NCBI GenBank assembly: GCA_963667465.2
Contig: CAXXDN010000002.1
Coordinates: forward strand, 1-64,000
Origin: Dehalococcoidia bacterium
Lineage (GTDB): Bacteria > Chloroflexota > Dehalococcoidia > UBA2979
DNA length: 64,000 nucleotides
Direction: 5' to 3'
In this document: one piece after another, positions 25,797 through 27,677 of the stretch
How the letters are laid out: each line of letters opens with the position of its first letter
Position numbering within the stretch: the first letter of the stretch is position 1
Position numbers and translations under genes: made by a program
Notes under the pieces: model-generated
Seen by the model: only the letters and a program-made list of their open reading frames with translations
Told to the model about the DNA's origin: nothing
Database searches by the model: none

Positions 25797-26212
25797 CCCC
25801 GCTCCTCCCGCCGCAGCCGCGTGATGCTCCGGCTTGCGCCGGGCGGCGACTACCCGTAGCCAGTATCGCCGGGCGGATTGGTAGCGGCGAGGGTTGGGCG
25901 AGTGGGCGTGGGTCAGCCGCCGATCAGGCGGTCGTACCCGTCATGGGCTCCAATCCACACCCAGGTGAAGTCGTTCCCGTCCTCAACGGCGAGCGCCCTC
26001 TAGTCGCGCCCCACGCGTGCCGACCAGAATGCGCCCACCTTCTTGAAGCGAAGCGATGGGTAGGATGGATTCGCCTCAAGCAAGCGGAAGTTCCGCCTTG
26101 CCACCCGCTGAACCGGCTCTGGAAGCTGTCTGAACTCTCGCCAGAAGCGGGGGGTGTCCCCATCTTCTTCGTCAAGGGTCGCGGGCCGGTGACGGTGGGC
26201 AAGGGGAGGCCA

Positions 26213-27427
26213 TCAGGCGGCCACGGGCTCGTGTTGCGGGCCCGCGGCCTGGTACGCACGGCGCGAGCGAAGCATGGCGAGGATCACGTCGCAGCGCCGG
26301 CGCGCGAGGCAGATGACGGCCGCGTTGTGCGCCTTCCCCTCGGCCCGCTTGCGGTCGTAGAACGCCCTCGAGGCAGGGTCGCGCAGCGAGGCGAAGGCAG
26401 CGAGGAACATCGCGTTCTTGAGCCGGTGGTTGCCACGCCGGCTGCGGCCCTCGCCGCGGAGGCTGGAGCCGGACTGACGGGTCACGGGCGCGAGTCCGGC
26501 GTAGCTGGCGAGTCTCGATCCGTTTGCAAAGCGGGACCCGTCGCCGATCTCAGCGAGGATCCTCGACCCGGTCCGCGGACCGATGCCCGGAAGCGTGCCG
26601 AGGATGCGCCCGAAAGGGTGCGCGTTGAAGAGCTCCGCGATCTCGGTCTCGAGCCGCTCGCGGCGCTCAAACATGCGGTCGAGTTCGACGACTACCTCGG
26701 CGATCACGCGCCCCATCACGGTCTCGACGGGCACGACGACGGTCTGCGCGTCGAGCGCTTCGGCTACAGCTGCGGCAAGGGCCCTGGCGAGGCGCGGGGA
26801 GCGCTTCCGGATGATGCGGGCGATGCGGCCGCGGCCGGCCTGGGCCAGCGCTTCGGGCACGGGGTGGGGGGCGAGAAGGTCGCGGACACCCGGATGGTGC
26901 AGCCTGGGGCCGAGAACGCGCTCCAGGGCCGGGGAAACACCCGTCAGTGCGTCACGAAGCCGGTTCGAGAGCCGTGTGGCGTCGGCCGCAAGGTCGGCGT
27001 CGTAGCCGTTGAGGACGCGCAACTGCGCGAGCAGCTCGTCGTCGCGGGCGTCGAGCCAGTGCACCTGGTGGCGCCGGGTGCGGCCGGTGTCGGCGAGCAC
27101 GAAGGCGTCGCGGCGGTCGGTCTTGGCCTCGCCCGGGTAGAGGTCGGCGGCGCGGCGCATCACCAGTCCGGGCACGTAGGCAACGGGAACGCCCCGGCGA
27201 GCGGCGACCGCGAGCACGAGGCTCGCGAGCGAGCCGGGCTGATCCACGACCAGTGCCGGGCTGCCGGTCGACGTCGCGCGGTCGAGCAGGGCCTCGATCT
27301 CCGCCTCGTCGTTGGCGACGGCTCTGGAGAAGAGCGGCGAGCCCGCGGCGTCGAGCACGTCGGCAAAGTGCTCCGCCTTCCCGATGTCGAGGCCGATCCA
27401 CACGTCGATGTCGTCGGGCGTACCCAC
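26213..27427 (-). CDS. IS110 transposase/recombinase
   Basis: GLDIGK, VDQPG, KTDRRDA (RuvC-like), LPGIG, YAGLAPVTRQSG (catalytic Ser), GNHRLK, LARRR; GTG start after GAAGGGAG. Confidence 0.95.
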   Translation of the reverse strand: MGTPDDIDVWIGLDIGKAEHFADVLDAAGSPLFSRAVANDEAEIEALLDRATSTGSPALVVDQPGSLASLVLAVAARRGVPVAYVPGLVMRRAADLYPGEAKTDRRDAFVLADTGRTRRHQVHWLDARDDELLAQLRVLNGYDADLAADATRLSNRLRDALTGVSPALERVLGPRLHHPGVRDLLAPHPVPEALAQAGRGRIARIIRKRSPRLARALAAAVAEALDAQTVVVPVETVMGRVIAEVVVELDRMFERRERLETEIAELFNAHPFGRILGTLPGIGPRTGSRILAEIGDGSRFANGSRLASYAGLAPVTRQSGSSLRGEGRSRRGNHRLKNAMFLAAFASLRDPASRAFYDRKRAEGKAHNAAVICLARRRCDVILAMLRSRRAYQAAGPQHEPVAA

Positions 27428-27457
27428 TGTGGCTCCCTTCGGTTGCTCGCCCACTCG

Positions 27458-27645
27458 TCCGGAAGGCCGCAGGTACGCTCGCCGTCATCCACCTTACGAA
27501 TCAGCGATCCGCCGCATGTCCCCATCAGAGGTTCACGCACCGAACAGCGCCGGTGGCAACACCCCCCAGGCCGTCGAGCGACAGGGGGCACTGAGCCATG
27601 CCGGCGCTGCCGGACTTCCCGGTCTCAGACGCTACTGAGGCCGTA
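27458..27645 (-). ncRNA. Putative IS110 bridge RNA (5' hairpin, target-binding loop, donor-binding loop)
   Basis: Stems GCAGCGCCGG/CCGGCGCTGT, CTCAG/CTGAG and GGTGCGT/GCGTACC; loop sequences match the element ends and the target; RNA ends are approximate. Confidence 0.72.
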
Positions 27646-27677
27646 CGGAGAAAGTAAGGGGGGGTGGCGCGATGCAC

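Follow-up and report, generated by a model that had tools for sequence, protein, structure and literature searches.

The window analysed here is a 64,000-nt stretch of a Dehalococcoidia bacterium (assembly GCA_963667465.2, contig CAXXDN010000002.1, positions 1 to 64,000 of the forward strand), and the sequencing runs that contain its sequence are sponge metagenomes. On the minus strand of this window lies a 1,503-bp insertion sequence of the IS110 family (26155-27657), with the ends TTAC...GGGGACA. In its own orientation the element starts TTACTTTC and ends GATGGGGACA, and it stands between two runs of C: seven at the left junction (27658..27664 on the minus strand, G7 on the plus strand) and six at the right junction (26149..26154 on the minus strand, G6 on the plus strand). 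These are more C's than the target and a two-base core can supply. Comparison of copies, relatives and empty sites indicates that such a surplus is a genuine and recurrent oddity of a clade of elements that, like this one, read a homopolymer with their target guides.

The recombinase gene of the element (26213..27454, minus strand) encodes 413 aa with DEDD_Tnp_IS110 and Transposase_20 domains (domain-level Pfam matches to PF01548, E = 6.3e-41, residues 20-175, and to PF02371, E = 1.1e-23, residues 283-366). Two further copies of the element are present in the source genome (G000), one identical and the other 99.7% identical to the window copy. Their left runs are both C5, and their right runs are C6 and C7.

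From the sequence and from comparison with orthologues, we observed that the window copy splits a ParE-like toxin gene into a 5′ piece (27665..27677, minus strand; GTG CAT CGC GCC A...) and a 3′ piece (25915..26148, minus strand). The intact orthologue of a relative (L059:1898-2149) matches PF24732 ParE_like (E = 1.9e-7). The gene upstream (27678..27878, minus strand; 66 aa), which has no Pfam match, is labelled an antitoxin by its position only, and the interrupted locus is presumed to be a toxin-antitoxin pair of the ParE/RelE type. The 3′ piece also contains an in-frame stop codon (TAG, 26002..26000) at a position that encodes Tyr in three relatives (TAC in G009 and G010, TAT in G015), and the base that makes this TAG is the same in contigs from three studies. 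The toxin gene is therefore broken twice, by the insertion of the element and by the nonsense codon. The consequence for the host is an ordinary one, the knock-out of the toxin of a toxin-antitoxin pair.

In the orientation of the element, the left junction reads GTGCATCGCGCCA-C7-TTACTTTC and the right junction GATGGGGACA-C6-GCTTCTGG; the copy as a whole is GCGCCA-C7-TTAC...GGGGACA-C6-GCTTCTGG. In the relative G010 (L059), whose flanks are 91% and 90% identical to those of the window copy, the gene is intact and reads GTGCATCGAGCCA-C6-GCTTCTGG, translating as VHRATPRFWREF... (VHRATPRFW...). The empty site of another relative, G009, is CA-CTCCCC-G and likewise has six letters. Thus the empty target CA-C6-G, which an initial annotation of this DNA had deduced from the window, is seen directly in G010 and agrees in length with G009, and the count of five C's more than a CC joint allows, given in the same annotation, is arithmetically correct for the window copy. 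That annotation had also named a homopolymer miscall among the things that would refute it. The contigs make this very unlikely: Logan contigs of X1 (possibly the source sample), X15 and X16 (studies P1, P12 and P13) span both junctions (25700/25704-26177 and 27633-28081/28100) with no other letters and no gaps, bearing in mind that such k-mer contigs can hide rare variants. The other two copies have their junctions reproduced as well, by loose ends of the Logan contigs. Among the four runs aligned we saw no contig that skips the element, a result that is no evidence on the absence of empty alleles.

The left end of the element (27455..27657, minus strand) encodes the bridge RNA, which has two internal loops on covarying base stems. 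We aligned the left ends of 48 diverse relatives and obtained by RNAalifold a consensus fold of 36 pairs, 14 of them with compensatory changes. Both base stems covary, and columns 79/140 and 151/225 have 16 double changes each. No family was matched in an Rfam scan of 25500-28500 with E up to 1. The single-sequence fold, in which the left guide's C5 is paired to the right guide's G6, was no better than the folds of shuffled sequences (z -0.73), and the alignment-based structure was used in its place. The two target guides are mutually complementary (C5 against G6) and are paired in the single-sequence and the alignment folds alike; judging from this complementarity in the modelled folds, the target loop may be closed in the free RNA.

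We assigned the guides by the rules of IS621, in which, as described in PMC11208160, the left half-site and the core are matched in sense by the 5′ side of a loop, and its 3′ side is complementary to the core and the right half-site. On the 5′ side of the target loop, the left target guide AGUGCCCCCU (27583..27592, minus strand, read from 27592 to 27583) pairs with YR-C5, and it covaries with the left flanks in relatives. On the 3′ side, the right target guide UGGGGGG (27562..27568, minus strand) pairs with C6-R, and relatives having CAAGUGG or CGGGUGG in its place have the right flanks CC-ACTTG or CC-ACCC. The donor loop matches the element's own ends: the left donor guide GAUGGGGACA (27507..27516, minus strand) is identical in sense to the right end, and the right donor guide GUAAGG (27487..27482), which is followed by UG (27481..27480; together 27480..27487, minus strand), is complementary to CC-TTAC. 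In the 48-sequence alignment the donor guides are identical across the clade. The target guides vary together with the flanks (AUUUGGCCCU with ATTTGGCCCC|TTAC, CAAGUGG with CC-ACTTG), and four guide variants in relatives match their own flanks.

The UG after the right target guide (27560..27561, minus strand) is placed like a handshake guide of IS621, an assignment made by analogy, and is complementary to the terminal CA of the right end. In the account of IS621 given in PMC11208158, once strands have been exchanged, handshake guides base-pair with the other DNA at its positions 6-7. The initial annotation had chosen CA as the core because it counted the UGs after the right guides as part of the guides; the position of the UGs, together with the filled and empty sites of relatives, moves the core to CC. 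Relatives with the guides AUUUGGCCCU/CAAGUGG or AACUGGCCCU/CGGGUGG occupy sites of the form ...TGGCCCC|TTAC...ACA|CC-ACTTGG or CC-ACCCC. The comparison of the empty CTGG-CCCC-ACCCCC with the filled CTGG-CCCC|TTAC...ACA|CC-ACCCCC fits only a CC core, and a CA core was rejected on this ground. As judged from these site sequences, the core is CC in near relatives, the joint is GGGGACA-CC-TTAC, and insertion there is conservative. The same donor joint had been proposed initially, and it agrees both with the donor-loop guides and with the filled and empty pairs of relatives.

We also read a TTGACG in the right end (26170..26175, minus strand), 15 nt from the last base of the element, which lies 18 nt from a TACTTT of the left end only if the joint is CC. 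With that joint the two would form a junction promoter, whose function is presumed. No consensus promoter was called in a scan of L259, which has CC-TTACC directly after a right-end fragment, and hence the argument from a junction promoter stands on the reading of TTGACG and TACTTT. The fragment in L259 (G022:C1:156450-157000) belongs to a distant relative, and in L260 (G014:C4:1137500-1138000) a right-end fragment of a distant relative is followed by CCC-TTACTT...; from their sequences these two look like fossil joints of right and left end, or insertions into donor-like half sites.

The excess of C's recurs in other copies. The three copies in the source genome read CA-C7|...|C6-G (window), TG-C5|...|C6-G (L002) and AG-C5|...|C7-G (L003). 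The L002 copy lies in a 58-bp tandem repeat, the next two units of which are empty and both read (T/G)TG-C6-GACG. The right flank at L043/L002 (G000:C1 about 459150-459332) holds about three 58-bp units (CCCCCCGACGTCGCTGCGC.CTCGAAACTTCCGAGGGGAGAGGGGGCCGGA.TG), and in this array every unit has a TG-C6-G site, one unit being occupied. The L003 copy lies in a hairpin that in relatives reads GCAG-C7 in three of four and GCAG-C6 in one of four. Outside the source genome, a copy with the same guides in G001 reads GCG-C5|...|CCTCCCC-GAGTG, and its site is empty in relatives as C9 (the nearest, G014), C7 (G005, G009 and G010) or CCTCGCC (G011). Another copy with the same guides, in G011, reads TAG-CA-C5|...|CCTCCCCC-GG, and the corresponding empty site is TAG-C8-GG. 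For three copies in G099, the relatives were too diverged at those intergenic sites for run lengths to be compared.

Relative to the target plus CC, the surplus amounts to 5 letters for the window copy, 3 for L002, 3-4 for L003 and 5 for the G011 copy; for the G001 copy it is 3 if the site had seven letters and 1 if it was C9. Thus a surplus is present at 5/5 homopolymer-guide sites for which an empty site could be compared. On these sequences the single figures are soft and the direction of the effect is consistent across the sites. The comparison of filled and empty sites proposed in the initial annotation therefore upheld the existence of an excess at sites with the same guides and did not return a fixed value of five. 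Relatives with mixed guides behave differently: the filled site equals the empty site plus exactly CC in 2/2 repeat-copy pairs (...AACTGG-CCCC-A-CCCCC-G...), and in L051, the single insertion checked in a coding region and also of the mixed-guide kind, removal of the element and one CC restores the frame. Hence the mixed-guide relatives fit conservative insertion (2/2 and L051), whereas the copies in the genome of the window exceed the target plus CC by 3-5.

We observed that the right run equals the run of the empty site at 5/5 sites when the majority allele is taken (6/6, 6/6, 7/7, 7/7 and 8/8), as it should if the inserted block is constant and enters at a constant offset from the 5′ edge of the run. 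At three independent loci CCT stands beside the right end, each time with a pure C5 left run. The T of this CCT has no counterpart in five C-only empty alleles, and a sixth allele, the CCTCGCC of G011, carries T as its third letter. The absence of the T from the left run and from the C-only empty alleles argues against the CCT letters being a duplicated segment of the target.

A search with the recombinase gave 246 relatives from metagenome contigs and 180 from genome contigs, of which the best 80 of each were kept. In the left ends of these two sets of 80, CCCCCU/UGGGGGG target guides are the state conserved in a large clade, most of whose members come from metagenome-assembled genomes of Actinomycetota, and homopolymer target guides are conserved in about 100 distinct related elements. 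Out of 169 locus ids (L077-L236 and nine others), 107 distinct junction sets passed the motif anchors; mixed-guide elements, truncated contigs, loci in which the motifs were not found and duplicates were dropped. With a C5 guide (n = 92), the left run was five letters long in 56, four in 12, six in 10, seven in 3, eight in 4, ten in 1 and 0-2 in 6, the last six rows probably being misplaced left ends and counted as such. With a C4 guide (n = 15), it was four letters long in 8. Where the right end was found (n = 24), the right run was six in 13, seven in 7, five in 1, eleven in 1 and CCT... in 2. The modal junctions mirror the guides (C5, G6), and the C7 of the window is a value from the tail.

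The runs beside these elements are unstable, since across the clade the left runs span 4 to 10 when the probable misplaced ends are excluded, and since orthologous fragments differ in length (C10 against C14). The fragments in question, L257 (G018:C2:1999250-1999750) and L258 (G001:C3:3101020-3101520), are 124-bp right-end pieces, 97-98% identical to the element; both terminate with GATGAGA, after which one genome has C14 and the other C10, the flanks being the same. In the 107 junction sets, the last variable base of the guide equals the base 5′ of the run in 83/107, and the next base matched in 53/107; we did not use this anchor test as support because 83/107 is close to the expectation from base composition, estimated near 77%.

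What a cut-and-rejoin reaction can do to a run of C's was derived from the cleavage positions described in PMC11208158, for one or two registers, a 2- or 4-nt stagger, and exchange of both strands or of the top strand only. In any such scheme, the C's at the two new junctions equal the target run plus the donor run on each strand. The possible outcomes for a CC donor in a C6 target are thus C5/C3 or C2/C6, and never C5/C6. As cutting and rejoining makes no letters, the surplus implies letters borne by the element, a longer target, or DNA synthesis.

From the observed anatomy, guides, junction lengths, empty sites and contrast with relatives, we infer an origin of the surplus and a pathway in which, with about even confidence, an ordinary IS110-family bridge-RNA element carried its surplus in, each junction was set in a separate register, and slippage was added. 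In a short C-run such as CA-C6-G, the two target guides could not both be satisfied in a single register. The left junction, R-C5-TTAC, would then be set by the left target guide together with the right donor guide, and the right junction, GGGGACA-C6-R, by the left donor guide together with the right target guide, while the surplus C's, usually three, would be brought from the previous site of the element. This might happen in two ways. A circle could be excised in a shifted register, so that its joint would be C5 (CCYCC) instead of C2. Alternatively, the element could move by direct transfer in two steps, left junction and then right junction, each in its own register, in the manner of CazIS110-1, for which a preprint describes sequential left-then-right junction transfer (10.1101/2025.10.25.684509). 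In a worked example of the latter, a C5/C6 donor copy would meet a C6 target with the left-guide register used at the first step and the right-guide register at the second; the new site would end with a C5/C6 copy and the old site with C6, no letters having been created. The two extra C's on the left of the window copy (C7 against C5) would be run-length noise, either slippage after insertion or a variant donor.

Letters carried in by the element fit most of the data, because the right run equals the empty run in 5/5 and the left run follows the left guide. A similar resolution is known in the family, whose claimed duplications turned out to include one copy that is part of the element, as related in PMC11187229. 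It is more likely that register ambiguity in a conservative reaction, together with run instability, is at work than a new mechanism.

Several points weigh against this explanation. A C5 joint would part the donor-guide footprints by 3 nt and stretch the promoter spacer to 21 nt, and these donor guides do not differ from those of relatives with a CC joint. Direct transfer would not carry a T by the right end, and the CCT loci fit only the shifted circle. At 2/5 sites (window and G011) the surplus is 5, which neither route predicts without an extra event; in the window a +2 slip could explain it, and in G011 the two extra left letters are CA, which slippage cannot make. The circle joint was not seen in the genomes scanned: joints of a circle or tandem (right end, 0-14 bases, left end) were found in 0/61 genomes of the family, which include only four genus relatives plus G000, and in 0/19 genomes of the genus. 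Moreover, the empty sites are those of other species or of paralogous repeats, the run lengths are those of the assemblies as given, and one of the empty sites differs among relatives (C7, C9, CCTCGCC). The pathway proposed for the window element is drawn from sequence.

A true target-site duplication is another reading. In such a duplication, because the target guides overlap on the C-run, the two strands or the two junctions would be processed 3-5 nt apart in the target, repair synthesis would fill the difference, and the donor would give only CC. This would suit the surplus at 5/5 homopolymer-type sites and its absence in mixed-guide relatives, the donor guides and promoter spacing that favour a CC joint, and the modal C5 and C6 junctions, which equal the C and G counts of the guides. 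We nevertheless consider it unlikely. The IS621 scheme, as laid out in PMC11208158, consists of cutting, exchange and religation and has no known step that makes new DNA. The left C7 of the window is longer than the whole C6 target, so that it cannot be target sequence alone, and the left run holds no counterpart of the T found in CCT at three right junctions. The version in the initial annotation was a 5-nt duplication by staggered exchange between target guides overlapping by about 7 nt. The footprints of the guides do overlap on the C-run, and to that extent the idea holds; the left C7 that it predicts at every site fails, the run being C5 in 56/92 and in 2/3 copies of the source genome, the surplus is not constant but varies from 1 to 5, and nothing shows gap-filling synthesis. 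The surplus could also mean that bridge recombination on homopolymers is not letter-conserving, with the junctions formed in separate registers, each by its own guide pair, and every CC donor entering C6 to give C5...C6, a net gain of at least three C's. We hold this possible though doubtful; if it is true, the clade, which counts about 100 distinct elements from metagenomes of Actinomycetota and Dehalococcoidia, lengthens C-runs on landing and on leaving.

The surplus would vanish if a CC donor had inserted conservatively into alleles that were already C9-C11, the shorter runs of relatives being other alleles. The guides taken at face value specify R-CCC-CC-CCCC-R, which is C9; C-runs are hypervariable (C7 against C9 at one site, C10 against C14 in the fragments), and runs of at least nine C's exist at seven sites of the source genome, both strands counted. 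Yet the window copy would need C11 in a coding sequence, out of frame, where the orthologue has C6, the L002 copy would need C9 beside two sister repeat units that are both C6, and at each of the five sites the run would have to be longer than in any relative examined. An unoccupied CA-C9-G site exists in the source genome. Four of the long runs were compared with relatives; two alignments spanned the run, neither with a +3 change in length. A longer target is thus quite improbable. Least credible of all is that the assembler miscounted the homopolymers: the source is a two-contig metagenome assembly, and long-read assemblies can miscount homopolymers, but in all three studies the k-mer contigs agree, with no difference and no gap, and include the junction ends of the other copies. 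Between these alternatives and the carried-in surplus with separately set registers, we favour the latter.

The long runs of the source genome were also considered as scars, on the idea that canonical excision from a C5/C6 copy should leave C9. This was not supported by the four of the seven runs of at least nine C's that were compared with five relatives. The L297 run is equally long in relatives, from which it differs by substitutions, and L294 is a variant of a repeat element. The other two runs were not spanned: the L295 run adjoins another repeated element, and at L299 the alignments end short of the run. At L297 (G000:C2:631483-631492), a G10 in a coding region follows a Cys codon in a context that by eye resembles a lipoprotein signal. 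Its length equals that of GGGGGCGACG in four relatives, and because of this equality it arose by substitutions, not by slippage. A second repeated element is present in at least ten copies in G000 (L004-L013), with about 71% identity to a 125-bp stretch of the gene of the insertion sequence; one copy (L295, G000:C1:749828-750736) ends at a G9 run, and many copies occur in relatives.

Some copies of relatives depart from the standard anatomy. In L044 and L046-L048 (G014), L054 (G012) and L055 (G022), a left tip TGCAGAAACACCG... replaces TTACC... and the upstream sequence is identical; by their sequences these copies appear to be a composite or truncated form. The left flank of L023 (G018) matches a gene at G000:C2:449560-449720 and 580900-581060, the empty form of which, GCAG-CCCC-ACCTG, is the exact target of the L023 guides. 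Its right flank, ACA|CCTTAGCG, is unrelated, which suggests a rearrangement or deletion beside the element.

These junctions matter beyond the locus. Bridge recombinases are being engineered as programmable insertion tools on the premise of a clean exchange of a two-base core, and a natural, widespread clade in which both target guides fall on one homopolymer is a test of what happens when the register of the guides is ambiguous. If the surplus travels with the element, it calls for caution in defining the ends of IS110 elements and in placing guides on repeats. Should the surplus originate during insertion, bridge recombination would have a non-conservative outcome.

Compared with the known systems, the window element resembles IS621 in its recombinase, which in both has a DEDD/RuvC-like and a Tnp domain, in the guide RNA encoded in the left end upstream of the gene, with a target loop and a donor loop, and in a core dinucleotide at both junctions. 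After each right guide there is, as in the IS621 of PMC11208158, a two-base segment complementary to positions 6-7 of the other DNA. It differs in having a recombinase of 413 aa, against the 326 aa stated for IS621 in the same source, and CC as its core. Its target guides are homopolymeric and mutually complementary, with footprints that overlap by 5-7 nt on real targets, its junction runs exceed what a CC joint allows, and its bridge RNA has no Rfam match. With the long-transposase subgroup of IS110 (395-455 aa in the description of PMC11187229) it shares the length of the transposase and the non-coding region upstream, and most of its relatives are in GC-rich hosts of the actinobacterial type; the placement in this subgroup is by length and Pfam domains only. 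In IS492 and ISEc11, as reported in PMC11187229, an apparent end repeat is accounted for by assigning one of its copies to the mobile DNA, which is comparable with the carried-in letters proposed here, but in the window element the repeat is a homopolymer of variable length, and the donor guides predict a shorter joint than the surplus needs. CazIS110-1 makes its left and right junctions in two top-strand transfers (10.1101/2025.10.25.684509), which would permit a register of its own for each; that work used no homopolymer targets and reports no change in length, so that we extend its scheme to the window element by inference. The recombinase domains, the left end with two loops, the match of the donor loop to the element's own ends, and the match and covariation of the target loop with the flanks are those of an IS110-family element.

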